Position numbers and translations under genes: made by a program. A stretch of DNA of 64,000 bases from NCBI GenBank assembly GCA_016861265.1, contig BOLA01000001.1, positions 934,150 through 998,149 of the forward strand, written 5' to 3'. Shown one piece after another: positions 8,840 through 64,000 of this stretch; position 1 is the first letter of the stretch; each line of letters opens with the position of its first letter. The notes beneath the pieces were generated by a model. It was not told the origin of the DNA. It did not search any database and saw only the letters and a program-made list of their open reading frames with translations. This DNA comes from Patescibacteria group bacterium. Lineage in GTDB: Bacteria > Patescibacteriota > Dojkabacteria > J137.

Positions 8840-8901
8840 AGCCATTTTTAAGGCTTAAATTAAATGCTATTATATTTTGATTCTATTAGTTAATTATTTT
8901 T

Positions 8902-9609: not shown

Positions 9610-9641
9610 TATATATTCGCTAAATATTCGATAATTGCATA

Positions 9642-9667
9642 AGTGCCTGGACAAGGCACTTTTTTGT
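9642..9667 (+). terminator. Rho-independent terminator (AGTGCCT-GGACA-AGGCACT + TTTTTT)
   Basis: Hairpin plus U-tract seen downstream of the GT2 gene. Confidence 0.7.
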
Positions 9668-9741
9668 TTGTACTGGTTGTAAAAAATAAATTGAACATGT
9701 ATAATGTAGTAGTTATATATAAATTTTAATATATACAACCT

Positions 9742-15800: not shown

Positions 15801-16734
15801 TTACACTGCTCTTCAGCAAATTTTATCTTTAACGGCAAAGGATTGTAAACCATACGTAGATTCAATAGAGCTTGATAGAAGTCTTGATTCTGTAAATAGA
15901 CAAATTGATTTTAAATCTATAGATGGATTTAACTGTGATAATCTAAATTTGTACAATATTAATCTAAAGAATGGTTTCTTAATTAATATTGAAGGGGAAA
16001 ACAAGTCAGGTCCAGGATTAGTGTTAAATGTAAGCGACTTTTACTATAAGAAGGTATATTACACGAATAGACTTCCTCAGAATTCTAATTTTAGCGAATA
16101 TTTAACTATCCCTAATTTAATTGATTCCGCTTCTAATGGTTTGAATATTTTTATTAATAATCAATCAGTTGGTAACAAAGAAACTATAAACTCCATTAAG
16201 AATATAACTGTAAGCCCAATAATTTATAGTTGGCTTTCAGGCATAGAATATCAGTCTGCTCCCCTATTTAGCTCAGATAATAGCGTGATTAGTGTAGATA
16301 AACTTACTACGACAAATTACAAAATTGAGTTGAATCCATCAAGTTCTGATAGAATACTTAAATTCAATCAGAGCTACGAAGCTAACTGGCTAGCCTACGA
16401 CGATAAAGGTAATCTGCTTAATCGGCTAGGAACAGTAAATAGTAATACAGAAAAAGCGGAATGGAACAACTATTGGATTCTTCCGGCTGGAGTGTCGGGA
16501 GTCTTTATTGAATATAGAACTGAGACTTACCAATATTTAGCGTACGTGATAGTCGCATTCTTATTTGTGGTTCTTACCGTTGCATCTGCATGGCAAAGTA
16601 ATAGGTATATTATTTTTGTTACCCAAATTAAAAAAGCATACAAGAAACAAAGAAGAAAACACATGCTTTTTGTCGAAAGAAATATTGAGCCGAAACTAGA
16701 CCGATTCAAGAAGTTTAATAAGAAAGATCTCTAA
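12877..16734 (+). CDS. giant (1285 aa) membrane protein: N-terminal ~12-TM GT-C/YfhO-like domain, large extracytoplasmic domain, C-terminal TM anchor
   Basis: Uninterrupted ORF in an AT-rich genome; topology inferred from hydrophobic segments; family assignment is an inference. Confidence 0.6.
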   Translation: MLKMKKKSPLFKLINPIWSRKFIIILFVLWILICIANFSPDTFLTGWDNLHPEFNYSMNLKRLLTSSWAEYQGLGAPGAHSHAAEIPRMFIVGILNLIFETNLVRYIFTFITLIIGVIGIYYLVNNIFLKRKEKKLREFSAFAAALFYMLNVGTVQHFQAPFEMFNVQYALLPWLIVLAIKFLETKKYKYLLYFSVVTFFAAPMAYAVMLWIAYFGGLTIFLLLNLVFQRKKDLIKPSIFLLSVTILVNLFWLVPNLYFVFNHSNYVPTAKTNLIFSEEAFLTNQKYGNLVDIFLNKGFLFDWQIRNPNYTFEPIMGKWDSHIDNPIVLSIALLSFALIVVGILYSIYRKQKYLIPLIGVLVFAVIVIMGTNPPLGGVWEVLVAKISVLQEAIRFPFTKFSILFIFTQTAFLGLGTYSAARLITKRIHFQYGSIFALLFLLLISVVYSLPTFQGNFINKSLRIDIPNDYFELFDYFKDQNKAERIANFPVNTLFGWFYTDWGYQGSGFLWYGIEQPILDRDFDRWYTTLEDYYDSVSQAVYTNDANSLKDVLKKYAIDWIIIDEHVVSSSEDNNYSLNPDLASSEMAYKETKALLEKIPGVEQKAVFGKIYVYKISGLDTDNSYVDVLNNDAEGQPIESKNAFIEDNFGRKSEETYFEKISNDNVNYINNVYTLSNEPGNLHLPQIYDSEKSIPVRIAARKNSSSVNIRLTYQIPTIYVNDQSTVNVTKVRNLNFDIANQSSNYYLDINNQQLLLEDIDNAWKIYGFMDVALDKDLVANLYNIDDGENITSRLDLEKAQINNCSGSAIAKSSSVSFVNDVLNFRSTGENICVEFKISTLNTVNSLYRLEMEYKSNQGVIGDACIKFDAGCVNTKEFRSDYLPTFWYKFNTFAKDEDSNNFSTALVFNNSSPENTASIGYRNVKLYRYELDDQVVIKLEDIKNDLRFANTDIPIKPINTKLTFKFILPTSKIYNFDYTALQQILSLTAKDCKPYVDSIELDRSLDSVNRQIDFKSIDGFNCDNLNLYNINLKNGFLINIEGENKSGPGLVLNVSDFYYKKVYYTNRLPQNSNFSEYLTIPNLIDSASNGLNIFINNQSVGNKETINSIKNITVSPIIYSWLSGIEYQSAPLFSSDNSVISVDKLTTTNYKIELNPSSSDRILKFNQSYEANWLAYDDKGNLLNRLGTVNSNTEKAEWNNYWILPAGVSGVFIEYRTETYQYLAYVIVAFLFVVLTVASAWQSNRYIIFVTQIKKAYKKQRRKHMLFVERNIEPKLDRFKKFNKKDL

Positions 16735-49623: not shown

Positions 49624-50490
49624 TTACTCTGATAAAAAGCGAATAACTTCTTCAACTATATTTTGTCCAAAGCCTGCAAAATCGTGTTCGGCATTTTTTA
49701 ATACAATTGTTTTTATTCTAGGTGAATTTTTAAGTTCCTTTTCTAACACCTGCATCGCCATGTATGGATCCATACATGGTACGATTCCATCGTCTTGTGT
49801 TCCGGTAAAAGCCAGTACTGGCAGGTTTATATTATTTACTGCTTCAAAACCTAATTCCGGCATTAAAAAGTTAAATATTGCATCCTTTGCATTTTCTCCA
49901 AAAAAGGAAATATAAGTTTTTGCGGAAAGAAGCGTTTCTCCCCATAGTTGATCACTGAGTAGCTGATCCGATTTTCCTAACTCTACTAGCTTTTGTGCTT
50001 CTGCTAATAATTTTTTGTGCCTTTCAATTTCTTCGGGATAATTTACTAATCCCACCATATCCGATGGGCTTAGGAAAATAAGACCATTTATGTCGGTACT
50101 ATTAGTTTGGCTAATATAGTAAGCAACCTTTGAAGGGCCTAAACTATGAGATTGTAACCAAATATTCTTAAAACCCATTGATTTTGCGGTATCTATCCAC
50201 CCCTGAATATCAAATACGCAGTCTTCAAAAGTCTCGTATGCATTTCCAAGGTTAACACTACTTCCATTCTTGTCGAATTGGGTAACACTATGAGTACCTC
50301 TATGTTCAACAGCTAGAAAGGACCATCCATTTTTAGGATAGTATTCATGCATAAAGGGATAAAATGAATTGAAATATATATCCCCACTCATGCCGTGAAT
50401 GTGTAGAATTAGGTTCTCCTTATTAGCAGCTCTACTTAATAAACCTGTATAAGTAATTCCATCGGTTGATTTACCTTTTATTATTTCCAT
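49624..50490 (-). CDS. alpha/beta-hydrolase fold protein
   Basis: 288 aa; nucleophile elbow QSHSLGP (GxSxG variant). Confidence 0.65.
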   Translation of the reverse strand: MEIIKGKSTDGITYTGLLSRAANKENLILHIHGMSGDIYFNSFYPFMHEYYPKNGWSFLAVEHRGTHSVTQFDKNGSSVNLGNAYETFEDCVFDIQGWIDTAKSMGFKNIWLQSHSLGPSKVAYYISQTNSTDINGLIFLSPSDMVGLVNYPEEIERHKKLLAEAQKLVELGKSDQLLSDQLWGETLLSAKTYISFFGENAKDAIFNFLMPELGFEAVNNINLPVLAFTGTQDDGIVPCMDPYMAMQVLEKELKNSPRIKTIVLKNAEHDFAGFGQNIVEEVIRFLSE

Positions 50491-50492
50491 AT

Positions 50493-51401
50493 TTAAAAAC
50501 TTAAATCTAAGTTATTTAAAGTAAAATCCAGACCTTTAATCGCTACAGATCTGGTAGCGATTTGCTGAGCATGTACTATGGACTTCTGTAGATCCTTAGT
50601 GTTTAGAATCTCGGAAATAAATACAGCCTTAAAAATATCTCCTGCACCCACCGAATCAACAGCTTGAACGGGAGTTGTTTGAAAGTATATGGGGTCTTTA
50701 GCACCTTTTTCTAATACTGCGCAGCCATCAATATCTAATGTAAGTATTATTGTCCCATTACAGAATTTCCTGAATAAGGTAAGTACCCTAAAGGCATCTT
50801 CAACACTCCTAATTTGTTCATTAAATAGAGCCTCGGCTTCTTCCCTGTTAGGCGAAATATATTCAACATCTTTTAGCTTACTCAATTCCACAGTCTTTTG
50901 GGGGTTAGGAAAGTCCAAGAACAATTGTACATTCTTTTTTCTACAGATTTCTACAAGTTTATATAAACAGTCAACAGGTAAGTGAGTTGCACCGTAAATC
51001 ATTTGATAGTTACTCAAACTACCTTCTAAGTCCTGTATATCTTGCGTTGTTACCTTGCTGTTGGCTCCAAAGAATATATTTACGGCACTTCTTTCTCTTT
51101 CATCTGTTATTACGGATATTTGACCGGTTTTAGTATCCTCACTTTGGGAAATTAGATCGATATTTATATTATATCTTTTTAAGTCAGATAAGATTTTTAG
51201 GTAAAGATCGTCGGTTCCTGCCTTTGCAAAAAAGTCTACACTATTGTTTAATCGACTCATTACCCTTGCCGAATTTATAGTTTTACTGCCTGTAAAGGTA
51301 TGTACTTCGCTTGCGACACTAAATTCGTTTTCTACGGGAATAGTTTGTACCAAAAAATCATTTTCAAGGTATATGTCTCCGACTACAAGTAATTTTGCCA
51401 T
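50493..51401 (-). CDS. PfkB/ribokinase-family carbohydrate kinase
   Basis: C-terminal DSVGAGDIF motif; N-terminal GG-like region. Confidence 0.75.
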   Translation of the reverse strand: MAKLLVVGDIYLENDFLVQTIPVENEFSVASEVHTFTGSKTINSARVMSRLNNSVDFFAKAGTDDLYLKILSDLKRYNINIDLISQSEDTKTGQISVITDERERSAVNIFFGANSKVTTQDIQDLEGSLSNYQMIYGATHLPVDCLYKLVEICRKKNVQLFLDFPNPQKTVELSKLKDVEYISPNREEAEALFNEQIRSVEDAFRVLTLFRKFCNGTIILTLDIDGCAVLEKGAKDPIYFQTTPVQAVDSVGAGDIFKAVFISEILNTKDLQKSIVHAQQIATRSVAIKGLDFTLNNLDLSF

Positions 51402-51415
51402 AGGTTTTTATGTAA

Positions 51416-52159
51416 CTAATTGCCTAGATTATAACCAGCATCGATTAATATATTTTGGCCGGTAATATTAATATTTGTAGCAAGTAGTAAAGCGACATTG
51501 GCAATTTCTTGGGGTTCTATTAATTTTTTTGTAGGAATCTGTTCAAGTGCCTGGTCTAATTCATCTTTTGGAGCCTTTAGCCAATAGCCTGCATTTACTG
51601 CACCTGGTGAAATTGCGTTAGAGCTTCCGTAAGGACTTAGTAGTTTTGCTTGTCCCTGAGTAATATTTACTATTGCTGCTTTTGCTGCTGAGTAAGCAGG
51701 CGAGTCAAATTGTCCCGACACACTGTATCTGGTTGCAATATTAATAATGGTTCCTTTTTTGTTGCTGGTAAAATGTCTTAATGCGTATTTAGATACGCCT
51801 AATACATTCAAGGTATTTAGTTCAAATGTCTTTAACCAAGACTCATATTCCCCATTCCAGTCATCGCCATCTATATATCCTCCAGCGTTATTAACGAGAA
51901 TATCTAAATTCCCAAGTTCTTCTATTACTGTTGATATAACCCTATCGCAATCCTGTTCGTTTGTAAGATCACCTGATAATGTAATTGCTTTTACATTAAA
52001 TTTTAAAGTTTCTGATAAAACATTTTGGGCGCCTTGGTAATCAGAATGGTAATGGATTGCTACATTAGCTCCTTCGGAGGCTAGTTTAAGGGCAATTGCT
52101 TTACCAATTCCTTTTGAGGCTCCGGTTATTAGTGCAGTTTTTCCTTCTAATTTTTTCAT
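51416..52159 (-). CDS. SDR-family oxidoreductase (3-oxoacyl-ACP reductase-like)
   Basis: TGASKGIGKAIA cofactor motif, NNAG, YSAAKAA catalytic motif. Confidence 0.85.
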   Translation of the reverse strand: MKKLEGKTALITGASKGIGKAIALKLASEGANVAIHYHSDYQGAQNVLSETLKFNVKAITLSGDLTNEQDCDRVISTVIEELGNLDILVNNAGGYIDGDDWNGEYESWLKTFELNTLNVLGVSKYALRHFTSNKKGTIINIATRYSVSGQFDSPAYSAAKAAIVNITQGQAKLLSPYGSSNAISPGAVNAGYWLKAPKDELDQALEQIPTKKLIEPQEIANVALLLATNINITGQNILIDAGYNLGN

Positions 52160-52710
52160 TATATTAACCCTTGGAATTTTAGTAACACCGAAAGCAAGTC
52201 TACTTTAGCAGGTGTATTGTTCTGCAATTTTTCGATTAGTTCGGATTTATCCAGCCATTCACCGTTAGAGTAGTCATTATTATTGTATTTTATTTCGGTA
52301 TCAATATTAAGCTTATATACTTCCATAAAGGATTTTATCTGATCGATTATAGGATTTAACTTGCCTAAAAATACTAGATTTTCGACTTCTGTATTTATAT
52401 TTACTTCTTTTTTGAGACCGCCTAGTAAGGCCTGTTGATAGGTTTCTCCTGAATGTACATATCCGCCGCAGCTAAAATCCAGGCAATTAGGCCAAAATTT
52501 TTGATGTTCGGAACGAGTTGGAGTCCAGATTTTATTATTTTTGTTAATCAGAAAGCAGTTTACAGTTCTTACATACATGTTTTTCTGTCTTAACTCATCT
52601 TCGTTTAAGGTATTTCTATCTATTTGAATACCTGTGGCGTTATCGTTCCCGTCAACTATATCTAGGGTTGGTTTTAGTCGTTTATCACTAACTCTGTAAG
52701 ACAAGATCAT
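52159..52710 (-). CDS. Nudix-fold hydrolase with degenerate Nudix box (IDI-like)
   Basis: GGYVHSGETYQQALLGGLKKEV: Gx5Ex7 present but REuxEE not canonical. Confidence 0.45.
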   Translation of the reverse strand: MILSYRVSDKRLKPTLDIVDGNDNATGIQIDRNTLNEDELRQKNMYVRTVNCFLINKNNKIWTPTRSEHQKFWPNCLDFSCGGYVHSGETYQQALLGGLKKEVNINTEVENLVFLGKLNPIIDQIKSFMEVYKLNIDTEIKYNNNDYSNGEWLDKSELIEKLQNNTPAKVDLLSVLLKFQGLI

Positions 52711-52838
52711 AGGTAACTGTAAATGTCACTATTATAGCAGTAAAAAAGAAAAAGAGAAGATTAATTGGTTATATACCCACTCTTCTCTTTTTCTTATGTG
52801 TGAATGTAATACTACAGACTATTACTAACAATCTATTG

Positions 52839-53459
52839 TTAGAAACCAAGGCTCTCTTTTACAATAATAACTGTTGTTCGGTCTGGCATGAATTCCTTTT
52901 CCATAATAAGCCATTTGTTAAGACTGCTGCCGGCTTGTTCCCCGTATTCAGACTTCATTCTTTTGTCTTCTAATGGAAAAACATACTCCTTAATTCTTTT
53001 AAAGGCAGCATCTAAATCTTTTACTATTTTAGTTGCACTTACAACAACAACAACTTTTTCTGCTGCAAATGGTAGTGTTCCTATTCTGCTACCAGTTGCA
53101 TCTACAGCAATTAATTGTCCGTTTTCAGTTACGGCGTTTACACTGCTTACAAAATATTCAACTGCAATCGACTTTCGTCTTAAGTCTGCTCTCTTTTGTG
53201 CATCGTCTTCCGCCACAATTTGTTTACCAACATAGTTATATTTAGAAGTATCACCTTTTAGCAAATCCATAAAACCAATTTGTTTTAGACTTGTAGATGA
53301 CCCAGTGTTTACATCTTTACCTTCAGGAATTAGTTCTAAAAGCTTTTCTAATGCCTGTTCTTTATTATCTACAATAAAAGTCTTCATGTTATGGGCATTA
53401 AGATTTTCTGCAGTCTTGTTTATTACTTCATCAGTAGGGATTGTTGTCCATTCGTTCAT
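52839..53459 (-). CDS. LUD-domain (LutC/DUF162-like) protein
   Basis: 206 aa with overall LUD-domain pattern (…VNTGSSTSL…, …SATKIV…). Confidence 0.5.
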   Translation of the reverse strand: MNEWTTIPTDEVINKTAENLNAHNMKTFIVDNKEQALEKLLELIPEGKDVNTGSSTSLKQIGFMDLLKGDTSKYNYVGKQIVAEDDAQKRADLRRKSIAVEYFVSSVNAVTENGQLIAVDATGSRIGTLPFAAEKVVVVVSATKIVKDLDAAFKRIKEYVFPLEDKRMKSEYGEQAGSSLNKWLIMEKEFMPDRTTVIIVKESLGF

Positions 53460-53593
53460 ATTAATTATTTAATAAGTATTATAAGCAATTAATTGCGCAT
53501 ATTATTTGCTTTTTTAATATTTGAATTCTATAATTCATTGTGTAAGTTTGTAAAGTACGCACTTTTTAATTATATAGTGTTAAAAAAGATACT

Positions 53594-53923
53594 ATGGCGA
53601 AGGAATGTGAGAGTAAAAATCCTGTGAATGTAACTCTTAAGGTTATTGGAGGTAAGTGGAAACCATTATTAATGTGGCTAATTGCTCAAGAAACAATGCG
53701 TTTTAATGAGCTTCAAAAATCTATGCCTGGAGTAACTCAAAAAATGCTTACTCAGCAGTTACGGGAACTAGAGTCAGATGGATTAGTTCAAAGAACTGTT
53801 TATCCGGTTGTACCACCTAAGGTTGAATATTCCTTAACAGAATACGGAAAAACACTTGAGCCCGTATTAAAAGCTATGGCAACGTGGGGTAATTCACACA
53901 AGTCTCGTTTAAACGCTGAATAA
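53594..53923 (+). CDS. HxlR-family winged-helix transcriptional regulator
   Basis: CPVNVTLKVIGGKWKPLLMW…RFNELQKSMPGVTQKMLTQQLRELESDGLVQRTVYP. Confidence 0.85.
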   Translation: MAKECESKNPVNVTLKVIGGKWKPLLMWLIAQETMRFNELQKSMPGVTQKMLTQQLRELESDGLVQRTVYPVVPPKVEYSLTEYGKTLEPVLKAMATWGNSHKSRLNAE

Positions 53924-54156
53924 TTAACACTATATTGATTATATACATCGAATAATATACGTGTTATAATTTAAGGTTACTTTTCTTCTAGCCTATTTTA
54001 GGTTTTGTAGTGACTGATAAAAGAAGGAAGGTTAAAGTTTTGATTCTAATATCAGTGTAAACAAAATTTAATAGGGTTTTAATGGGATTTCCCCCTGCCT
54101 ATATTATATTTACAATAGTCTAGATTCAGACGTGTATAATTTTTTATTCTATTATT

Positions 54157-55656
54157 TTGAATAATAAGAGAAATTTTAAGAGATCCAGATTCGATAGAAC
54201 ATATAAGGACTCTTCTGCTCCTAGAAACTCGAGCAGTAACAAAAGAGATTCAACAAATTATTTAGGAGATGTAACTTACTCATCTTCACGAAGAGCTAAG
54301 CCTGCTTTTGATAAAAAGAGCCGAGGTTCTGATTCCAGGCCTTATAGAGGAGGAACTTCAAGTTATGCTGTAAACAGATCAGAAAATACTCAAAAGGAGA
54401 GTTTTAACTCTAATCCTTCGAGAATTGATAGATCTTTAAACAGAGATAGATACCCTAGATCTAACGGTAGATTCGGTGAATCGAGAGGAAGATTTGGAGG
54501 TAACAGACCTGTAAGACCATACGGAAGAGGTAGAATGGATAATAAGAACTTAGATGAGATTATTAGATTTATTAAGTCTTCAGTAAACAAGCCAAAAGCT
54601 ATAGAAGTTAAAGAGGAAGAAAAATTTGTAGGTGAAATTCAAGATGTAGTTACAGAGAAAGCTTTATTAAAGAACTTATTAAATAAGGGCTTTACAAAGA
54701 CTACACCTATTCAAGCAAAGGCTATTCCTGTAATTAGAGAAGGAAAAGATATTCTAGGTTTAGCAAATACTGGAACTGGTAAAACAGCAGCATACTTAAT
54801 TCCATTAATAGAAGAAACTCTTAAAAAGAGAACTAAGACTCTAATTTTGGTTCCAACAAGAGAATTAGCTATTCAGATTAAGAATGAAATTTATCTATTT
54901 ACAAAGGATATGCCAATAAGATCAGAGATTATTATTGGTGGAGCCGACATGTATAGGCAAATTCAAAATCTAAGAAGAAATCCTGACTTTGTTGTAGGTA
55001 CACCAGGTAGAATTAAGGACCAGAAGCAAAGAGGCAACATTGTAATAAGTAATTACGACAATATTGTTTTAGATGAAGCAGATAGAATGCTTGATATGGG
55101 TTTTATTACAGAAATTAAAGATTTACTAAAAGAAAGAAAGGCAGATGTTCAAAGTTTATTCTTTAGTGCAACTATGGATAAAAAGGTTGCTCTATTAATT
55201 AATGAATTCTGTAAAGCATATTCTACAATTGAAATTAGCCAACAGAAAGTTACTGATTTAATTGATCAGAAGATTGTTACTTTTAAAGATGACGAAGCAA
55301 AAATGGAGAAAGTTGAAGAACTTTTAGGTAATTTTGACAAGTCAATTATCTTTGTAAATACAAAACATAGAGCTGATAAGTTAATGAAACATTTAAACGA
55401 AAAAGGCTTTAGAACAGACGCTTTACACGGAGATAAAAGTCAGAATTTAAGACAGAGAATCATGAGAAATTATAAAGACAATAGATTTGACCACCTAATT
55501 GCAACAGATGTTGCAGCAAGAGGAATAGATGTAAAAGATGTTTCTCACGTTTTGAATTACGATGTCCCAGCTACTGTAGAAGATTATATTCACAGAGTAG
55601 GTAGAACCGGAAGAGCCGGAAAAGTCGGAATAGCAGTAACGCTAATTAGAGAATAA
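54157..55656 (+). CDS. DEAD-box ATP-dependent RNA helicase with ~125-aa N-terminal Arg/Ser/Gly-rich extension
   Basis: Q-motif GFTKTTPIQ, motif I ANTGTGKT, DEAD (LDEADRML), SAT, HRVGRTGRAG. No ATG before 54535; the open frame from the TTG at 54157 is far longer than expected by chance in AT-rich DNA. Confidence 0.8.
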   Translation: MNNKRNFKRSRFDRTYKDSSAPRNSSSNKRDSTNYLGDVTYSSSRRAKPAFDKKSRGSDSRPYRGGTSSYAVNRSENTQKESFNSNPSRIDRSLNRDRYPRSNGRFGESRGRFGGNRPVRPYGRGRMDNKNLDEIIRFIKSSVNKPKAIEVKEEEKFVGEIQDVVTEKALLKNLLNKGFTKTTPIQAKAIPVIREGKDILGLANTGTGKTAAYLIPLIEETLKKRTKTLILVPTRELAIQIKNEIYLFTKDMPIRSEIIIGGADMYRQIQNLRRNPDFVVGTPGRIKDQKQRGNIVISNYDNIVLDEADRMLDMGFITEIKDLLKERKADVQSLFFSATMDKKVALLINEFCKAYSTIEISQQKVTDLIDQKIVTFKDDEAKMEKVEELLGNFDKSIIFVNTKHRADKLMKHLNEKGFRTDALHGDKSQNLRQRIMRNYKDNRFDHLIATDVAARGIDVKDVSHVLNYDVPATVEDYIHRVGRTGRAGKVGIAVTLIRE

Positions 55657-55660
55657 ATTA

Positions 55661-55686
55661 AAACCCGCGAAAGCGGGTTTTTTTGT
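55661..55686 (+). terminator. Rho-independent terminator AACCCGC-GAAA-GCGGGTT + TTTTTTG
   Basis: Seen in sequence. Confidence 0.8.
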
Positions 55687-55730
55687 GCCTGTTATAATTA
55701 GTTAAGCCAAGTTAAGGAGGAATAGAACAA

Positions 55731-56141
55731 ATGAGTCTGCTGACAGTTAATTACAGCGGTTCTGCTATGGCTCAAGCGCTTCCCAAGCCAGTGGGTCATG
55801 GCAATCCTCGGATAATGCTTTCCGAGTTTGGTAGTGAGGTGGAAACCGAGCTGATCAAGGCGCTGGGAAATCAGACCATTCTTCCTGTGGGCATTATAGG
55901 TACTAGTGGCGCACAGCCGTTTGGTGTAAATGCCCGCAATCGTGGAAGTGTTGAATTGCTTTTGGAACTGATTTCCCCTGTGGAGCTAGATTCCGAGGGT
56001 GTTCATGAACTTGCCGTTATCATGAGGCGTGCTGTATTGGACCTATTCAATACGCCACGTTATCAGGGCGGCAGTTATGAGCAGCTCGAGGTTCTGTCTA
56101 TGGTGGTTGTTCACAGGGGTGTATTAGTTTCTAAAGGCTGA
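55731..56141 (+). CDS. hypothetical protein on a GC-rich islet (~50% GC)
   Basis: 136 aa; extended -10 TGTTATAAT and SD AAGGAGG upstream; hairpin GCGGGAACTGC-AAGC-AGTTCCCGC at 56157..56182. Confidence 0.45.
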   Translation: MSLLTVNYSGSAMAQALPKPVGHGNPRIMLSEFGSEVETELIKALGNQTILPVGIIGTSGAQPFGVNARNRGSVELLLELISPVELDSEGVHELAVIMRRAVLDLFNTPRYQGGSYEQLEVLSMVVVHRGVLVSKG

Positions 56142-56182
56142 CAACCAACGAGCTTGGTGCGGGAACTGCAAGCAGTTCCCGC

Positions 56183-56700
56183 ATAAGTAACTACATATAG
56201 TTTTAATTGATTCCTGAAATTGTTTTTGTTGAAATTTGTATAGAAAGTTCGTGGAGTACTTTCTGTCAGGTGCATGGGTAATGCACTTTGAAATTCGGCT
56301 ACCGGCCTTATTCGACATAAGTACTCCATAGGTATAAAGCTGTATCTTCCCCTCTTCGGAGGAAAGGCAAATCAATTAAGGCATCAGGGGGCTTTCCCTT
56401 ACATCCAGATTCGCCGAGCGCAGACTCTTTTGCTTTATACATCAGCATAGTGACCGAAGTCATTCTATGCAAGGCAGCATCGGGCTTACACAAAGTATTC
56501 ACCCAGTAAGAGGCTTTGTCCTGCCTTCTTCCGGTAAGTTGTGTATGAGGTGTATTGTTAGCCACACATTTATCTCAAGCGCCGCACAATGCTCCGTTTT
56601 AAAGTTGCTCCCCAAACCTGTGGGGACCGTACTCTAGTCCTTATCTCCAGAATTTAATCATTGGAGCCCTTAAAGGGGTCTGCAACTTCGCGACTAAAGT
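56183..56700. other. ~520-nt GC-enriched non-coding region with multiple hairpins (candidate large structured RNA or decayed gene)
   Basis: Only short overlapping ORFs on the minus strand; UUCG-capped stem CCTCTTCGGAGG and other local helices; no family identified. Confidence 0.25.
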
Positions 56701-56902
56701 AGACGATTAAGATATTAACATATACTTTTAATATTCCAAACATAAATTCTATAATATTTATAGACCATGAAAGTTTCTTAAAAATGCAAACTATGTATTA
56801 AAAAATATGAGCCGGTATGTAAGTTAATTGTAAATTCTAGGTCAAATATATAACCCTCGTCTCAATTAAATAGTAGAATAAATTATTATTACATTTTTTA
56901 AT

Positions 56903-57412
56903 ATGAATAAAATTAAAAACATATTACTTAGTGCGGGAATTATTGCATTTACCGGGCTATTCTTTACGTTAAATATTAGTGCCCAATCAAGTGCAAGTGA
57001 ACAAATTCAACAGGCTCGTTGTAGTCGAATTACTGCAAGAATTGATGCTCAAATAGAATCATATAATTTAACTAAAGATAAGTACATTAATATTTATACG
57101 AGTGTGGGTGATGCCGTAAGTATTAGATTAGACAATCTAGAAAACAAAGGAGTTGATGTTGCACTATTAAGAACAGATCTGCAGGCGTTAAGTAGTTTAA
57201 ACGCAGAACTGGGAAGTTCATACGATCAATTTATAGCGGAATTAACTAAAGCTAAAGAATTTGGTTGCGGTACAAGTGAGAGTGAATTTACCCAACAATT
57301 GCAATTAGCAAGGCAACAGCTTTTAGTTGTAAAGCAAAAGGCACTTGATGTTAAAGAATATATATTCAATACTCTAAGACCGGATCTTAAGAATTTAAAA
57401 ACTACTATTTAA
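56903..57412 (+). CDS. secreted hypothetical protein
   Basis: 169 aa; signal peptide MNKIKNILLSAGIIAFTGLFFTLNISAQ. Confidence 0.5.
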   Translation: MNKIKNILLSAGIIAFTGLFFTLNISAQSSASEQIQQARCSRITARIDAQIESYNLTKDKYINIYTSVGDAVSIRLDNLENKGVDVALLRTDLQALSSLNAELGSSYDQFIAELTKAKEFGCGTSESEFTQQLQLARQQLLVVKQKALDVKEYIFNTLRPDLKNLKTTI

Positions 57413-57421
57413 ATTAATAAT

Positions 57422-57727
57422 ATGAATAAAAATAATTTACTAATAATTGTTGTAGGTGTTTTATTAATAATAGTTGTGGCAGCAGGTGCAATTTTATTAA
57501 ATAGACAAAATACAGTTATCAATAACTCAACAGATAACAATAATACTGCTCAGTTACAGACAACTACTCCAGATCCAGATATTTCAAATGATCCTGAAAA
57601 AATAAGAGGTAAATTCGAAAGTGAGATTAATTTTGAAGTAGATTCTGCTGTATCAAATATTGATTACTTGCTTACACAGGTTAATCCTGATTCAGATTTC
57701 TCAGATTTAGAAAATATTGATTATTGA
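57422..57727 (+). CDS. membrane-anchored hypothetical protein
   Basis: 101 aa; N-terminal TM; Asn/Thr/Asp-rich tail. Confidence 0.45.
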   Translation: MNKNNLLIIVVGVLLIIVVAAGAILLNRQNTVINNSTDNNNTAQLQTTTPDPDISNDPEKIRGKFESEINFEVDSAVSNIDYLLTQVNPDSDFSDLENIDY

Positions 57728-58386
57728 TAGTGAGATAAATATTCTATTACATCATCAAAGCTATTAGCAATAAAATCAGCTTTATCGCATACACTTTTTC
57801 GACATACGTTTTCGGTAAATGCTACAAATCTATGTGCAGCCCCTTGTTCTTTTATTTGGTAATCGGTAAATCCATCTCCCACAATTATTATTTCTCCGAA
57901 TAAGTTTAGGTTATTAACAACTTTAACCTTTCCCAGCTCCTGGGCAAGCAGGTTTTCTTCTACAATTCCTGCACATGTTCTATTTTGGTCAAACACGAAT
58001 TCATTTGCGTAAATATTGTGAGAGTTTAGTTTAAATTGCTCTAATGCCGGAATAATAAAATCCTTAAATCCCCCACTAATAATTATCACTTGATTAGATA
58101 TCTCTTCAAAATACTTTATGTTTTTGATAAAGGATTCTGTAAAATTCTGCTTTAAGACTTCTACAAGTTGCATTAATTCGTCTCTATTGAATTTTAGAAG
58201 TTCCATTCTCATTTTTAATGATTCGGGAAATGTTATTTGTCCCTGCATCCCTAGCTCGGTAATTGCCTTAATTTTTTGAGAAGTTTCGGAAGAGTTATTT
58301 CGAACGTCTACAATCCTAGCCAGTTCATCTAAGGCTTCCAATTTATTAATTGTAGAATCAAAATCTATAATTATGTAAGGAGTCAT
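57721..58386 (-). CDS. HAD-superfamily phosphatase (phosphoserine phosphatase SerB-like)
   Basis: Start MTPYIIIDFDSTI (HAD motif I DxD), C-terminal …IVGDGFTDY… (motif IV). Confidence 0.7.
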   Translation of the reverse strand: MTPYIIIDFDSTINKLEALDELARIVDVRNNSSETSQKIKAITELGMQGQITFPESLKMRMELLKFNRDELMQLVEVLKQNFTESFIKNIKYFEEISNQVIIISGGFKDFIIPALEQFKLNSHNIYANEFVFDQNRTCAGIVEENLLAQELGKVKVVNNLNLFGEIIIVGDGFTDYQIKEQGAAHRFVAFTENVCRKSVCDKADFIANSFDDVIEYLSHYQ

Positions 58387-58495
58387 TAGTATTGATAAAA
58401 ACAACTCTTTCAGAATACCATATACTTTTAGAGTTATACAATAGATATATATTGTTGTGATATAATCATTCCATCGCACATTAAGGAGGTTCTAA

Positions 58496-58927
58496 ATGCC
58501 AGTAGTAAGTGGTTTGTGGGATCAAGGACGAGTGTTCGCAGCACTCACTTGTAATCCCGAAGAGCAGCATACACAAGCCGAGGCACTAATGCTTGAGTTG
58601 TTTGAGGCAGCGCAAGCTGTTCTAGTCAAGCAACTTGAGGTTGTGCCGACGGGTATTGTGTTCTTCTGCGAGAAGCAGCCGATGCTCACCATAAATTCGT
58701 TCCCGCTGGAATTCGCCATTCGCAGCACTAAAAGCAAGGAATGGGGAAACAGGGATGATCAGCAAGAGATTATCCGAAAAGTCCTCAAGCGAATGCGGAA
58801 GGTGCTTAGGGCGTGGACTGAAGCCAAAAGGGCTAACTTTAGCGGTTGGCAGATTGGCATGGAGCTCAGCTTTATCGAGCTGTTCGCTACCAGCGAGGCG
58901 GTGGAAGAAGAAGCTGCTACGGAATAA
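58496..58927 (+). CDS. hypothetical protein on a GC-rich islet (~52% GC)
   Basis: 143 aa; upstream TGTGATATAAT extended -10 and SD AAGGAGG. Confidence 0.45.
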   Translation: MPVVSGLWDQGRVFAALTCNPEEQHTQAEALMLELFEAAQAVLVKQLEVVPTGIVFFCEKQPMLTINSFPLEFAIRSTKSKEWGNRDDQQEIIRKVLKRMRKVLRAWTEAKRANFSGWQIGMELSFIELFATSEAVEEEAATE

Positions 58928-58971
58928 CCGTGCGACCGAGGGGAGCGGAAAGCAAACGTTCCTCTCCAAAT

Positions 58972-59475
58972 TTATGCTTCTAGAGTTTCTTCTAGCATGT
59001 AGCTGCCTAAATTCATTTGTATCGAATAGTTATTAAGAACTTCGAGTGCTGTAAAATATGGCTGTGAATAATCGATTCCATTGCGTCTGCTGTCTTTTAT
59101 AAGAAATTGAAAGAATATTCTAGATAGTTGGTACATTGATTGTTGTGTTACTACAATCCTGTATTCCTCCGCTTTAAGATCGTCACTTGTGTAATAGGGG
59201 CCATTATAGTTAGGAATTTCTGCGTAAATATTGTTTTCTTCTATGCATTCTAATAGAAATCGAATGTGTTCCATAATTTCTGCAATTAAATCAATTGCCC
59301 TACTCTGAGGATTAGATTCGGAAAATTGTGTATTTAAGTGGTTTGGTCCAAAGATACCGGCAACAATTCCTATTAATTCGGCTTCCATTCTTACAATTGT
59401 AGCAGTGTTTAATGAATATTCCGGCGATGAAGGGGTACGTTTAAACCCAAGAAGATTGAGTACACTCATTAGCAA
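58972..59475 (-). CDS. hypothetical protein
   Basis: 167 aa ORF. Confidence 0.4.
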   Translation of the reverse strand: MLMSVLNLLGFKRTPSSPEYSLNTATIVRMEAELIGIVAGIFGPNHLNTQFSESNPQSRAIDLIAEIMEHIRFLLECIEENNIYAEIPNYNGPYYTSDDLKAEEYRIVVTQQSMYQLSRIFFQFLIKDSRRNGIDYSQPYFTALEVLNNYSIQMNLGSYMLEETLEA

Positions 59476-59539
59476 AATTTAACAAACAGGTTCAAAGGCA
59501 CTGTAGCAGAATATGTTTTGTTATGGAACCCTAAAAATA

Positions 59540-60145
59540 TTACTGACTAATGGGAAGATTGGTGGTAGTCAGGTATTTGTGTAGCTGTTCTTCTAAGTTC
59601 CAGAGTGCTTTTCGTGGTGATTCAATATCGTATAAGTAATAATATTCATAATCTACAATATCTATTATTGTGCTGATTAAATCTGTAAATTCATAAACAA
59701 CAATTTTGGTATAGTTATTACTAAAAGAAATTGTATTTACTAACTCAATAAGATAATGTTCACTCATTCCATCTTTTAAATATTCTTTTATAAGAAAATT
59801 TAATGTTTGTGTATATTCTTGTTTGAATGTATTCTGATTTTCAAATCTCATATTTTTGATTTCTTGATAAAGAAATTTTGTAGATCTTTCTTGTGTTGGC
59901 TCGACTTTTATATTTTCTAAGTAAGGCCAAATTTTTAATCTAATTTCTTCTATTTTTTTATAATCATGGTTATTAACCACGCTGGATTGTGTTAATAGTT
60001 CAAGAATATTCTTTAAATTCTTATCTGCAATATTTTGATTTAAATGACCATGAGCAATAGTAATAATATCGGATCTGCTTAGCTGTCCAATATAATATTT
60101 TTTTAGGTTTTGTTGAATTTCTTTAGTATTCTTCATCATTTTCAC
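59540..60145 (-). CDS. hypothetical protein
   Basis: 201 aa ORF. Confidence 0.4.
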   Translation of the reverse strand: MKMMKNTKEIQQNLKKYYIGQLSRSDIITIAHGHLNQNIADKNLKNILELLTQSSVVNNHDYKKIEEIRLKIWPYLENIKVEPTQERSTKFLYQEIKNMRFENQNTFKQEYTQTLNFLIKEYLKDGMSEHYLIELVNTISFSNNYTKIVVYEFTDLISTIIDIVDYEYYYLYDIESPRKALWNLEEQLHKYLTTTNLPISQ

Positions 60146-60437
60146 CGTGAATATATGTTGGAATACTTAAAGTTTGGGAAAATTCTTTTAACAATTCTAA
60201 AATATATGTGTCGTAGTGGGTAATAACCAAGTTTTGGGAATATATTAGCTTAATTGAAACTTCTTTCCTCTTTGCAATCAATACCCCACCTTTTATTACT
60301 TGGCTATTAGTTGAATCTAAATAATTAGTTTCTTTCAAGATTTTAAAGTCTTTCTGACGAAAGAAATTTTCAAATTCTTCAGGTGATAATTGGTTATCCT
60401 CAAACTCTGGTTTTAAAAAGATTAAGTATTTGTCCAT
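60123..60437 (-). CDS. hypothetical protein
   Basis: 104 aa ORF overlapping the downstream gene by 23 nt (operon). Confidence 0.4.
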   Translation of the reverse strand: MDKYLIFLKPEFEDNQLSPEEFENFFRQKDFKILKETNYLDSTNSQVIKGGVLIAKRKEVSIKLIYSQNLVITHYDTYILELLKEFSQTLSIPTYIHGENDEEY

Positions 60438-60493
60438 AACTGATTATATTACAGATATTAGTTGCGAAGGAGTTTCTCCGCAACTAATTTTGG

Positions 60494-60763
60494 CTATTGA
60501 CCGGTCAGGCGGGTGAAAAGATCCCCGTATTCCGCAGGGTTGGGTTCGTTGGTGGACTTTTCGGTGGACGAAGTTGCAGGGCGATCAGTGAGTTCGCCAC
60601 TTGCCCTAGCATCCTCACGTGCCTGATGCCACGCTTCCGAAACTTCCTTCCCGGATGAGTTTGTCCCCTTCATTGCATCGACTTTGTCGTACTTATTACC
60701 GGGGACATATCCTGCATCACGCAGTACCTTTTCGTCCGAATCTTTACCTTTCGGGTCTGCCAT
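60494..60763 (-). CDS. small hydrophilic hypothetical protein on a GC-rich islet (~52% GC)
   Basis: 89 aa; SD GGAGGTG on the minus strand; composition contrasts with flanks. Confidence 0.45.
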   Translation of the reverse strand: MADPKGKDSDEKVLRDAGYVPGNKYDKVDAMKGTNSSGKEVSEAWHQAREDARASGELTDRPATSSTEKSTNEPNPAEYGDLFTRLTGQ

Positions 60764-60906
60764 CTTGCACCTCCGTGCAACTTTTAAGAACCTCCTAGCA
60801 TTGGCATAGGATTAGTAGGAGTTTATCTTCTTAAAGTATTACAGGCATTGTAATGGGATACAAAAACCTAAGGATATTTTTTAATAATTGGGTAGTGGTG
60901 TCCATT

Positions 60907-61587
60907 TCATTGAGTGAAATACAATAAGATCTTTTGCATTGCACCAATACAATCCTCAATAGGTATAGGGACTCTTGTATTCTTCTTATTATGAACGTAA
61001 ATACTTCCAATAGAAATTTTAAAATCATTTAGTTCGTCTTTTGTTAAAATTTTATTTTCTATAATTCGATCTTTTAATTGATTTTCATTTTCTAGGCCTA
61101 GTTCCATTTGCAATGCTTCCCAAGATAGTCTTAGCCATATTGCTATTGTCCTGGGATTCTTTTCTGAAGTTTCGTTATGCTGAAGTGCTGTGTTAAAACA
61201 CGTAAGCGATTGAACATGGGTAAGTTCATTAGTACTATTTATTTTTATAGGAGCTGCACCACTTATACTAAATCCTATGTCTATTGCTGCTTTTCCAGTG
61301 ATTGTTTTTCTATTTAAATCCTCCCAAACATACGTATTATTATATATGTATGTTGAACTAACCCTTGCTTTAAGCGTATTTGTAAATGCGATAGACTCTG
61401 TTATTCTTCGAGAGTAGTCTAATGCTTCACCAAGATTGAAATTTGTATTATCAAATACGCATTCAACTTCAATTTGATTCTTAGTAATTTGCTTTACACA
61501 CACAACTATCCCATTATGTATATATCGATTAGGAACAGATTTAATTAATCCATATTTGAAAGTAATTGTAGAAGTTGTCTTTTTCAT
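60907..61587 (-). CDS. hypothetical protein (last gene of the candidate defence operon)
   Basis: 226 aa ORF; 15-nt gap to the upstream Nudix gene. Confidence 0.45.
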   Translation of the reverse strand: MKKTTSTITFKYGLIKSVPNRYIHNGIVVCVKQITKNQIEVECVFDNTNFNLGEALDYSRRITESIAFTNTLKARVSSTYIYNNTYVWEDLNRKTITGKAAIDIGFSISGAAPIKINSTNELTHVQSLTCFNTALQHNETSEKNPRTIAIWLRLSWEALQMELGLENENQLKDRIIENKILTKDELNDFKISIGSIYVHNKKNTRVPIPIEDCIGAMQKILLYFTQ

Positions 61588-61602
61588 TACTGGGAGATAT
61601 TT

Positions 61603-62088
61603 TTATATATTACTTATAATACTCTTGACCTCCTCGGCTCCATCTGTTTTTAACCAGGATATTACATTAAAAAATTCTTCCATTGTAAAGAAGTTGACGT
61701 ACTTAATTTTATCGTCTTCTTTTTCGGTATCTCTTTCGTGAGGAGCTAAATTGTATTCGCTACTATTCTTATTTAGTTTTAGTAAAAATCTTAATTGAAG
61801 GTAAGTTTGATTATCTTCAATTACAGTATAGTAACCTACAAATTGAATATCTTTTATGTCTGATTCTGTTAATTCAATTCCTGTTTCTTCGTACATTTCT
61901 CGAATTATTGTTTGATTAATACTCTCCCCTTTTTCTGGATGACCACCTGGTTGATGATACTTTTGATTACCTTTAGCTACTAATACATACTTGTTGTCTA
62001 AAGATAAAGCCCAGATGTATACTTGGCGGATTTCTACGTTTAGTTGAAGGTCTAATATGTTGTGGGAGATGGTGTAGGTTGAGGACAT
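61603..62088 (-). CDS. Nudix hydrolase (canonical Nudix box)
   Basis: GGHPEKGESINQTIIREMYEETGIEL = Gx5Ex7REUxEExGU. Confidence 0.8.
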   Translation of the reverse strand: MSSTYTISHNILDLQLNVEIRQVYIWALSLDNKYVLVAKGNQKYHQPGGHPEKGESINQTIIREMYEETGIELTESDIKDIQFVGYYTVIEDNQTYLQLRFLLKLNKNSSEYNLAPHERDTEKEDDKIKYVNFFTMEEFFNVISWLKTDGAEEVKSIISNI

Positions 62089-62099
62089 TTAAGCTTTAA

Positions 62100-62513
62100 T
62101 TAAAAAAAGTTAGTTGAAGTTATTACAGTTACATTGTAATCCTTAAAAGTAGTATTCAGAAATATTGTCAAATTCCTATCATCTGATATTACCACAATAG
62201 GATCGATACCTAAGCTTAACTGCTCATTATTAATAAGAGTTTTTACTAATGCTAGAAGCGAAACATCTCCAAGTCCACGTTGTTTAGACAAAGAGAAGTG
62301 TGGATATGTATTTAGAAAAAATTTAAAACTCTCAAGATAGTTTTTAAGATCAAAATCCTCCTTTGAGGTCGCGTCAATGAAATTCGAACTCAAATTCATT
62401 AATGCTTTTACTTCAAATTCTTCTCTAACCTCTGGAGTTATAAAGCAATCTTCAGAGTAATTAATTTTATTACTTTCTAAATATATTAAACCAGTATTAT
62501 CTATTATTGTCAT
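62100..62513 (-). CDS. hypothetical protein, possibly PIN-like nuclease
   Basis: 137 aa; N-terminal MTIIDNTGLIYL resembles the PIN first-strand acidic motif; more acidic residues later (…ISDDRNL…); weak. Confidence 0.3.
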   Translation of the reverse strand: MTIIDNTGLIYLESNKINYSEDCFITPEVREEFEVKALMNLSSNFIDATSKEDFDLKNYLESFKFFLNTYPHFSLSKQRGLGDVSLLALVKTLINNEQLSLGIDPIVVISDDRNLTIFLNTTFKDYNVTVITSTNFF

Positions 62514-63709
62514 AAGTTATTACTGCTTATATACTCTTTAAAGCCTTTTTTATTTATTCGACCAAACAGTAGGTATTGAGCTTGAATATTACTGAGTGAT
62601 TTATTCTTAAGAGCATCATTAATACCTTCAACTGTTTTACTTCCATTAAATTTTCTAATCGAATAGTTAATTGGTTGGGACCGACCGTTTTGGGGAGTAA
62701 GTATTTTGGCAATCTCTGGTTGCAGATTTAAAAATTCTTCTTGAGTTATTACTCCCCTTTTTCTTAGAATCACTATTACAGCAGTGGCTGTTAATTTATA
62801 AGACTTTGCTAATTCATCTCTTATGTCTTTAGTTATAGAAATTCCAATAAATTTATTTGTAATCTCTATTGGTAAAAGAAATTCACCTACTATATCATGT
62901 ATGAAGTTTTCTTCCTTTGTTGAGGATAATGCTTCAGCTGTTAAATCTCTTTTGATTAAGTAGTCATAACTGTCTAAGCCTATTAATACTAATAGATAGA
63001 TAAGTGTATAAATTTGCCTACCTTCTCGTTCGTTAGGATTTAATTCACTAGGTAAAAAAATAAAAGGTATAATTTCATCTTTTAATACAAACCCACTAGT
63101 ATTTCTATAAATTTCTTTACAGCTATTTATAATAGGTAAGATTTTATTGTTATCAAAAACTCCTTGGCATACATTGATGTTTTTATTTTCGATTAATCTT
63201 ATTAAGTAATATAAGGCATTCTTCTTATTTAGGCGCTTAAATTCACTTGTCGAAAATTCAAAATATTTTTTTATTTCATCAGCTGCTTTTAGCTCAGTTT
63301 TATTTTTAAGTAAACCTATAAACCTATTTTTGAGTTCATCTGAGTTTTCTGATAGAAAGTTTTGACAACGTATTAACCTATCTATAATTCTTTTTGAAGT
63401 TATTTCTCCTTCGCCAAGTCTCTTTGAAAAAAAAGTTGGTGTTAGTTTAACCTTTCTTAATTCTTCTATTCTCAATAATTCCTTTTCAAGTAAAGAAGGT
63501 GTTAATAAAAAATAATACCATGGAATTAATATTTTATTACATTCATTTATTAAATCATTATAATCGATTCTATTTTCTTGCAATGCACTTGCCAAAATGG
63601 GTCTTTGCTCTAAATTTTCTTCCGGATATAGATTTAATATTTTATGAAAAACATCTAGATCAATATTCGTAGCTTTAGTTCGTTTTACTTGTAACTCAAT
63701 TGTACTCAT
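62510..63709 (-). CDS. hypothetical 399-aa protein, translationally coupled to the DUF2075 gene
   Basis: 14-nt overlap upstream, 4-nt overlap downstream; no motif recognised. Confidence 0.45.
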   Translation of the reverse strand: MSTIELQVKRTKATNIDLDVFHKILNLYPEENLEQRPILASALQENRIDYNDLINECNKILIPWYYFLLTPSLLEKELLRIEELRKVKLTPTFFSKRLGEGEITSKRIIDRLIRCQNFLSENSDELKNRFIGLLKNKTELKAADEIKKYFEFSTSEFKRLNKKNALYYLIRLIENKNINVCQGVFDNNKILPIINSCKEIYRNTSGFVLKDEIIPFIFLPSELNPNEREGRQIYTLIYLLVLIGLDSYDYLIKRDLTAEALSSTKEENFIHDIVGEFLLPIEITNKFIGISITKDIRDELAKSYKLTATAVIVILRKRGVITQEEFLNLQPEIAKILTPQNGRSQPINYSIRKFNGSKTVEGINDALKNKSLSNIQAQYLLFGRINKKGFKEYISSNNL

Positions 63710-64000
63710 TGAAATATATATAACAACCTTTCACCCCTCTAGTCATAAGCGTCCTATAGGTGTTTTTTATAATTGCATCTGCCTTTTGTTTTGCAAGTTC
63801 AGGATTTTCTTTTAACAATTTTTTATAACCTTTAATTGAAGCATCCATTTTTGACCTTTTAATAGGGTCTGTAATGACTTCTCCATTTTCTATTCTTAGA
63901 TCAGGTCCAATAATTACTCCTATATAATCTAATTCAAGCCCTTGGCAAGTATGTATACAACCTACTTCGTTAACTGATGTAGGGTACACGCTCCACAGTC
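63696..64000 (-). CDS. C-terminal part of a DUF2075-like (Schlafen-group-3-like helicase-domain) protein; N-terminus is beyond the window
   Basis: …IHTCQGLELDYIGVIIGPDLR… resembles the DUF2075 C-terminal region; the frame is open to the window edge. Confidence 0.45.
   Translation of the reverse strand, partial: LWSVYPTSVNEVGCIHTCQGLELDYIGVIIGPDLRIENGEVITDPIKRSKMDASIKGYKKLLKENPELAKQKADAIIKNTYRTLMTRGVKGCYIYFNEYN

Follow-up and report, generated by a model that had tools for sequence, protein, structure and literature searches.

Does a run of five tightly packed genes in a bacterial chromosome encode one antiphage system, or several units that happen to lie side by side? This question is raised by one edge of a 64,000-nt stretch of a Patescibacteria genome (GenBank contig BOLA01000001.1, positions 934,150–998,149; hereafter the window), where minus-strand genes encode, in order of transcription, the C-terminal end of a DUF2075-type helicase, a 399-amino-acid (aa) protein, a 137-aa protein, a 161-aa Nudix hydrolase and a 226-aa protein. 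A preliminary description of the sequence treated them as a single candidate defence operon, with the combination of a helicase, a nuclease and a nucleotide-hydrolysing enzyme taken as the typical design logic of antiphage systems. Comparison with related strains and with the loci of each gene family indicates instead that the cluster is very probably a mosaic of independent units. One junction is conserved, that between the 399-aa and 137-aa genes, which probably make up a toxin–antitoxin (TA) or abortive-infection-type module with a PIN-domain protein as its effector.

Linkage of the five genes

A scan for open reading frames (ORFs) returned the same map as the preliminary description, with five minus-strand ORFs (Table 1). 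From the DUF2075 gene to the 226-aa gene, the first two junctions are overlaps of 14 nt and 4 nt (ATGA), and the last two are gaps of 11 nt and 15 nt. The DUF2075 reading frame has 101 codons with its stop at 63696, and runs without another stop to the window edge. GC contents are 27–31% over the five genes and are alike in the rest of the window. Tight packing is weak evidence for functional linkage in this compact genome because 17 of the 48 same-strand neighbour pairs in the window (35%) have gaps of 15 nt or less, and such packing in a streamlined genome easily mimics a multi-gene system. Scans for promoters and terminators gave counts at chance level. Co-transcription of all five genes is plausible, though it would be incidental to their function.

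Table 1. Coordinates of the features discussed, with gene orders at the syntenic site in three strains. Positions are those of the window unless a locus is named.
Feature	Position	Strand	Remarks
DUF2075 / SLFN-g3 helicase-domain C-terminal part, 100 codons and stop	63696..64000	-	PF09848; N-terminus off-window
399-aa M78 (ImmA/IrrE/CapP)-fold pseudo-peptidase, putative antitoxin or sensor	62510..63709	-	Upstream of PIN gene
137-aa predicted PIN-domain nuclease, putative toxin	62100..62513	-	Start overlaps 399-aa stop (ATGA)
161-aa canonical Nudix hydrolase	61603..62088	-	PF00293; flank (anchor) gene outside the module
226-aa protein of a small orphan family	60907..61587	-	Predicted N-terminal alpha/beta and C-terminal HEPN-like helical domain
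89-aa ORF	60494..60763		Separate cassette with the 226-aa gene
Synteny breakpoint versus close relative L028	61744..61745		Within Nudix gene; blastn
Synteny breakpoint versus L115	62077..62100		Nudix start / PIN stop; downstream edge of DUF2075–399–137 cargo; blastn
MazG-like gene upstream of DUF2075, example	L045 8122-8469		DUF2075 at 8474-10345
MazG-like gene downstream of DUF2075, example	L069 10123-10437		
Gene order, window			[DUF2075][399][137] / Nudix / [226][89]
Gene order, L028			[Type I R-M][SLFN_AlbA_2] / Nudix remnant / [225][89]
Gene order, L115			[Type II R-M] / Nudix / [GTP cyclohydrolase II][cytidylate kinase]

Homologues of the 399-aa protein number 189, each of ~394–400 aa and 40–50% identical over the full length. 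Those with names belong mainly to Patescibacteria (Paceibacteria, Kaiserbacteria, Saccharibacteria). The loci read for the pair were the neighbourhoods of four homologues and 20 loci from species-representative genomes. In all 20 informative loci, where the upstream gene is intact and enough sequence is available, the 399-aa homologue is immediately followed by a 137-aa homologue, and in most of them the two genes share a 4-nt stop/start overlap (ATGA). The surroundings of the pair change from locus to locus. In L002, L008 and L011 it lies inside a Type I restriction–modification (R-M) operon, with hsdS on one side and hsdR on the other; it adjoins other Type I R-M genes in L013, and lies within 10 kb of a large serine recombinase in ~10 loci; ParB-methyltransferase genes, RadC and a SMODS gene are further changing neighbours, and in L001 the pair is away from any recognisable defence operon. 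Homologues of the DUF2075 fragment, the Nudix protein and the 226-aa protein were found within 10 kb of none of the 399-family loci (tblastn, ~23 loci). Reciprocally, 80 metagenome loci (L035–L114) encode proteins 63–79% identical to the DUF2075 fragment, and none of the 80 has a homologue of the 399-aa, 137-aa or 226-aa protein. Among ~105 related loci in all, none ties DUF2075, Nudix or the 226-aa gene to the pair.

Comparison of three strains at the syntenic site leads to the same picture (Table 1). The close relative L028 is collinear with window positions 50665..61744 at 95–96% nucleotide identity and with nothing beyond (blastn). The break falls inside the Nudix gene, of which the last 40 codons are left, and the 226-aa-type gene (225 aa) and the 89-aa ORF are kept. 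Upstream of the break, L028 has a gene for an SLFN_AlbA_2 protein and a Type I R-M operon. A second relative (L115/L116), reached via the 90% cluster of the Nudix protein, matches the window only at 61622..62077 (Nudix, 89% nucleotide identity) and at 59473..60462 (p104/p201, 96%; blastn). It has a HinfI-type Type II R-M system upstream of Nudix, and between Nudix and p104, genes for GTP cyclohydrolase II and cytidylate kinase replace the 226-aa and 89-aa genes. Nudix thus acts as a stable anchor, with a hot spot upstream of it that gathers restriction and defence cargo.

Every junction except that between the 399-aa and 137-aa genes is therefore broken, given the L028 and L115 comparisons together with the family loci, and the proposal of a single five-gene system does not survive: homologues fail to co-localise at all of the other junctions in the co-occurrence check. 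The apparent design logic of helicase, nuclease and Nudix enzyme is an accident of juxtaposition because only the 399-aa and 137-aa genes co-localise. The expectation of a defence-island-like context fared better: close relatives have an R-M system of Type I or Type II at this site, which supports the view that the site is a strain-variable, defence-island-like hot spot of the Patescibacteria chromosome. The five-gene operon is thereby replaced by a recombination hot spot upstream of Nudix, into which R-M systems, a nuclease-helicase of the DUF2075 type and a TA-like pair have been gathered. The uncatalogued unit that the block does contain is the module of the 399-aa and 137-aa genes, and not the five-gene system that was proposed.

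The 399-aa and 137-aa proteins as a module

The suggestion that the small protein is PIN-like is borne out by its family. Residues D5, E32, D83 and D112 are invariant across 20 diverse members of the 137-aa family and have canonical PIN spacing. A member from L022, with 27% identity to the window protein, reaches 24.8 bits with PIN_4 (PF13638; gathering cut-off 21.9) in an alignment that spans profile positions 2–122 of 132, i.e., the whole domain. The family profile also gave a weak match to Fcf1 in the PDB (E ~1) at motifs I and IV, and the DUF4411 model does not recognise the PIN protein. We accept the 137-aa protein as a predicted PIN nuclease with an intact four-acid active site.

The 399-aa, 137-aa and 226-aa proteins of the window have no significant match of their own in Pfam, NCBIfam, PADLOC or PHROG. 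The preliminary description recognised no family for three members, which does not hold for the fold of the 399-aa protein. An AlphaFold2 (AF2) model of this protein is confident (predicted local distance difference test (pLDDT) 89, predicted template modelling score (pTM) 0.88) and contains the core fold of M78 (ImmA/IrrE/CapP) peptidases, with CapP as the best structural match. Sub-threshold matches to Peptidase_M78 (PF06114) occur at residues ~201–314 in 10 of 32 members, with none for the window protein, and the best member reaches 20.5 bits, below the Pfam gathering threshold of 22 bits. Sequence-profile searches of the PDB with the 399-aa family, its M78 region and the PIN family gave nothing significant. 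The helix expected to bear the zinc-binding HExxH motif reads RQIYTL[IV]YLLxxIGL in the family, and of the 120 members listed, 118 could be anchored, none of which has HExxH at that helix; the motif is also missing in the most divergent loci, and one member has an unrelated HELDH at residue 70. The 399-aa protein is therefore an M78-fold pseudo-peptidase, unable to act as a protease because HExxH has been lost family-wide. It has an extra N-terminal region of ~175 aa. No clear helix-turn-helix (HTH) was seen, and no separate Xre gene is present beside the pair.

Several known systems resemble the pair in part. PIN-like genes (DUF4411, COG2405, PIN_14/20/26) downstream of HTH-DUF955/COG2856 genes were predicted by Matelska et al. 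(2017) to form three-component TA modules, which often lie in R-M-rich islands and in which the PIN-associated DUF955 domains keep HExxH (PMC5499597). As in the pair, an M78-fold gene lies upstream of a small, single-domain PIN gene with four acidic residues, and the genes are co-transcribed or translationally coupled and frequent at Type I R-M loci or defence islands. In those modules the retained HExxH was proposed to serve proteolysis of the HTH antitoxin, whereas the 399-aa family lacks the motif; the pair also differs in having no separate Xre gene and no clear HTH, in a PIN protein outside the DUF4411 model, and in a much larger upstream protein (~400 aa) with its additional N-terminal region. 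The best reading of the pair is as a variant of these predicted COG2856–PIN modules. RosmerTA, a phage-defensive system of a Zn-peptidase antitoxin and a toxin (Millman et al. 2022; bioRxiv 10.1101/2022.05.11.491447), is likewise a two-gene system (RmrT/RmrA) in which an M78-type Zn-peptidase-domain antitoxin accompanies a toxin, and it is found in defence islands; the pair differs by its degenerate peptidase motif and by a toxin that would be a PIN nuclease. Neither protein of the pair matched a RosmerTA model in PADLOC 2.0.0 (E≤0.1), a release whose Rosmer content is unconfirmed. VapBC modules share with the pair a small PIN toxin with a D/E/D/D site, an upstream antitoxin gene, overlapping stop and start codons and a mobile, patchy distribution, but VapB antitoxins are small (~70–90 aa) DNA-binding proteins rather than 400-aa M78-fold proteins. 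CapP/CapH, IrrE(PprI)/DdrO and ImmA/ImmR use active metallopeptidases that cleave an HTH repressor after sensing single-stranded DNA (ssDNA) or damage, and CapP is activated by ssDNA (bioRxiv 10.64898/2026.05.16.725639). In the 399-aa family, by contrast, the catalytic motif is missing, and a nuclease takes the place of the repressor as partner.

These features suggest a mechanism for the pair, which would be an autonomous, horizontally mobile two-gene module in which the 137-aa PIN nuclease is probably the effector or toxin. The 399-aa protein, translated from the coupled upstream gene, may neutralise or gate the nuclease by direct binding; direct, non-proteolytic neutralisation is put forward tentatively as the likeliest mechanism, with a confidence below that for the module itself. 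More speculatively, the 399-aa protein could keep a CapP-like ssDNA-sensing groove and could free the nuclease upon a stress or phage cue, as ssDNA is for CapP and IrrE. The nuclease might then cleave RNA and bring about growth arrest or abortive infection, or the pair might act by plain addiction that stabilises the island. In the mosaic as a whole, the DUF2075 fragment would represent a separate nuclease-helicase unit whose usual clade partner is a small MazG-like pyrophosphohydrolase and not Nudix, Nudix would be a conserved flank gene, and the 226-aa HEPN-like gene with the 89-aa ORF would form another exchangeable cassette.

Three other explanations have to be weighed against a mosaic that includes a TA or abortive-infection-type pair. 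That all five genes form one integrated antiphage system, in which the DUF2075 helicase would sense and the PIN nuclease together with Nudix nucleotide depletion would execute, is barely credible. Such a system is first suggested by the close spacing of the same-strand genes, two junctions of which overlap and the others leave at most 15 nt, all five genes are of conflict type or unknown and sit at a defence hot spot of relatives, and a MazG-like pyrophosphohydrolase directly downstream of DUF2075 in nine loci makes a DUF2075 and Nudix unit split by an inserted TA conceivable. Against these points, equally tight spacing is found in more than a third of the same-strand pairs of the window, the other members are absent from all of the ~23 399-family loci and 80 DUF2075-clade loci, L115 keeps Nudix without DUF2075, 399-aa and 137-aa genes, and L028 keeps the 226-aa-type gene with a truncated Nudix. 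The remaining two explanations accept the pair and differ in its role.

The 399-aa protein could be a CapP/ImmA-like regulator, so that the pair would control a host defence operon (Type I R-M, DUF2075) transcriptionally or post-transcriptionally. This is suggested by CapP as the best structural match, by the control that CapP and CapH exert over many immune operons in the literature, and by the frequent position of the pair inside Type I R-M operons or beside other defence genes; it is unlikely, however, because the HExxH required for repressor cleavage is missing family-wide, its constant partner is a predicted PIN nuclease whose active site is intact, not an HTH repressor, and the pair also occurs away from recognisable defence operons (L001). 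A housekeeping role without conflict function, with a Patescibacteria-specific RNA-processing nuclease and a chaperone or adaptor, would fit a family that is centred on Patescibacteria with 40–50% identity over the full length, and some PIN proteins (Fcf1/Utp24-like) process rRNA, with Fcf1 the weak PDB match noted above. Yet the distribution is patchy, with L028 and L115 lacking the pair at the syntenic site, the variable neighbourhoods are rich in R-M genes and recombinases, and the pair also occurs in metagenome-assembled genomes (MAGs) labelled as other phyla, which together make a housekeeping role highly improbable. A TA or abortive-infection-type module is thus the preferred reading of the pair.

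Several points weigh against this reading and against the mosaic to which it belongs. The window 137-aa sequence reaches no PIN model by itself (Pfam, E≤0.1), and the YLLxx helix is equated with that of HExxH from Pfam alignment coordinates of sub-threshold matches and from a sequence pattern. A search with the 399-aa protein found no relatives in IMG/VR viral contigs and the pair has no PADLOC match, so that a defence role is contextual. That the PIN protein is toxic, and that the 399-aa protein neutralises it, is read solely from the architecture. The 399-aa homologue of L024 (10001-11177) looks frameshifted, with two tblastn segments in different frames, and its PIN gene is intact; this frameshift, if real, is awkward for a strict TA model. 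Neighbouring units of the mosaic may also cross-talk functionally.

Some copies of the pair are unusual in other respects. The 399-aa homologue of L021 (5943-6872) stops short at about residue 278 and is not followed by a PIN gene; this copy and that of L024 may be decaying genes or assembly errors. Copies of the module are also found in MAGs that bear the labels Methylophilus, Flavobacteriaceae, FCPU426 and Rhizomicrobium (L009, L012, L016, L021), which could indicate horizontal transfer, or contamination of bins by Patescibacteria contigs. A preprint describes a patescibacterial epibiont hosted by a methylotroph (bioRxiv 10.1101/2024.03.08.584096). The exact 399-aa and 137-aa proteins are on record from the NCBI genome only. 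An independent assembly of the same strain, L027 (Logan DRR258780), is identical to window positions 58301-62121 and breaks 33 nt upstream of the Nudix start, in the 3′ end of the PIN gene (~20 nt past the stop codon), which fits strain heterogeneity near the Nudix/PIN boundary.

The conserved unit of the locus is thus an ImmA/IrrE/CapP-fold protein without the protease motif, strictly coupled to an active-looking PIN nuclease, in a family of ~190 members, mainly patescibacterial, for which Pfam, NCBIfam, PADLOC and PHROGs have no entry. Should it prove to be a true TA or abortive-infection module, it would be a new defence or addiction family for a phylum with few recognised systems, and a protease-type antitoxin would have evolved into a purely binding one.

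The DUF2075 fragment and its clade

The preliminary description of a DUF2075-type protein with its N-terminus off-window is corroborated by a PF09848 match on the fragment (E 4.6e-30, profile positions 262–353 of 354). The fragment also matches PADLOC PDC-S41 (E 1.3e-7). Its full-length relatives have ~620 aa, or ~800 aa with a C-terminal Peptidase_S24 domain; the window gene is expected, from the length of these relatives, to have ~620 aa, which would place ~1.5 kb of it off-window. Approximately half of the relatives are of the ~800-aa type, with a fused Peptidase_S24 (LexA-like autoprotease), as in L040 (8471-10792), L053 (8465-10864) and ~35 others. Full-length relatives match PDC-S41 over the N-terminal domain and helicase, and Nhi and AbiO over the helicase. 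The N-terminal 260 aa of the relatives match the N-terminus of PDC-S41 and have a weak likeness to Holliday-junction-resolvase-like endonucleases.

Nhi-like proteins join a nuclease with DUF2075 (bioRxiv 10.1101/2022.05.11.491447), and both Nhi and PDC-S41 combine an N-terminal nuclease with a DUF2075 helicase in a single protein. The window fragment corresponds to the C-terminal end of DUF2075 and matches PDC-S41; this likeness is read from 100 visible residues and the nuclease end lies off-window. From its sequence the fragment is assigned to the PDC-S41/Nhi-like clade, as a unit separate from the 399-aa and 137-aa pair. The clade differs from Nhi and PDC-S41 by a gene that is usually adjacent and by the C-terminal Peptidase_S24 domain of some members. 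The adjacent gene is MazG-like (~105–125 aa; assigned by PF12643 on L117) and adjoins DUF2075 in 52 loci, upstream in 43 and downstream in nine, and 12 informative loci are without it. No alternative conserved partner was found in the loci that lack MazG. A Nudix protein was considered as a substitute for the MazG-like one beside DUF2075 and rejected: ORFs with a Nudix box occur in two of the 80 loci, non-adjacent to DUF2075, and both loci also carry the MazG-like gene. The window contains no MazG-like ORF, and any such partner of the window DUF2075 gene would lie off-window.

MazG and DUF2075 are mentioned together in no paper of the literature searched, and PADLOC 2.0 has no model for the MazG-like partner gene. 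The two genes may constitute an unrecognised two-gene form of the PDC-S41/Nhi-like candidates, and the MazG-like partner may refine the definition of those candidates. A more far-reaching proposal, which we regard as doubtful, is that two uncatalogued modules meet at the window edge: a dead CapP/IrrE-type sensor-inhibitor that gates a PIN RNase, and a MazG-like and DUF2075 pair of which only the tail is seen here. If this were true, a PIN RNase perhaps freed by an ssDNA or phage cue would provide abortive infection in bacteria that are poor in known defences, and a widespread MazG-like and DUF2075 pair would be one that is now catalogued as a single-gene candidate (PDC-S41).

P0127, which at 76% identity tops the protein search with the DUF2075 fragment, is split into ORFs of 412 aa and 170 aa that lie ~110 nt apart (L117 4651-5889 and 6001-6513), and the same split is seen in L118, so that it occurs in two samples. 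The matches listed by the search were short proteins only, none of them 100% identical to the fragment. In view of the split P0127 and the lack of a 100%-identical protein, the window copy may be a pseudogene. Very long contigs hold several other short DUF2075 C-terminal ORFs; P0134 (121 aa), for example, is encoded on a contig of 1.375 Mb.

The Nudix and 226-aa genes and adjacent sequence

The identification of the 161-aa protein as a canonical Nudix hydrolase stands: PF00293 matches with 42.9 bits against a cut-off of 21.1, and its Nudix box, GHPEKGESINQTIIREMYEETGI, fits GX5EX7REUXEEXGU as read from the sequence and is also caught by a looser regular expression. NCBIfam gave no assignment at equivalog level.

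The 226-aa family is very small: a word search found five proteins, and a set of 1.84 billion proteins yielded 19 cluster representatives. Its structure model is of medium confidence (pLDDT 70) and suggests a HEPN-like protein; the catalytic HEPN motif Rx4-6H is absent from the 226-aa protein. Residues A55, W88, N132, L135, H199 and C213 are invariant in the family. Homologues of 237 aa with 42% identity (L030 3892-8433, L031–L034) lie 4 nt downstream of a gene for a 1274-aa protein that combines TPR with PIN-TPR-GreABC and adjoins genes for a divergently transcribed LexA-like S24 repressor and a DNA methylase. Together these genes may make up a conflict system of several genes, with an orphan component of it in the window, and a conflict-related role of the 226-aa protein is hinted at because its homologues follow the TPR and PIN-TPR-GreABC protein. 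An ORF of 1285 aa in the window (12877..16734) was considered as the TPR-PIN partner of the 226-aa family and discarded for lack of similarity; that partner is absent from the window.

The cargo of L028 has features of its own. Its Type I R-M operon (L028 240-9764) contains extra ORFs of 167 aa between hsdM and hsdS and of 490 aa between hsdS and hsdR. The divergent SLFN_AlbA_2 protein has 684 aa, with this domain at its C-terminus, and no PADLOC match.

GC-rich islets (44–51% versus ~30%) lie at 55500-56700, 58250-59000 and 60250-60900 of the window and contain small ORFs of 136, 143 and 89 aa. Rfam and tRNA scans of 50000-64000 returned nothing, so that the islets are not known RNA genes. 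They are conserved at 95–96% in L028 and are therefore not strain-specific. The first islet contains an indel, with ~240 nt of the window (55939-56177) that have no counterpart in L028 (blastn).

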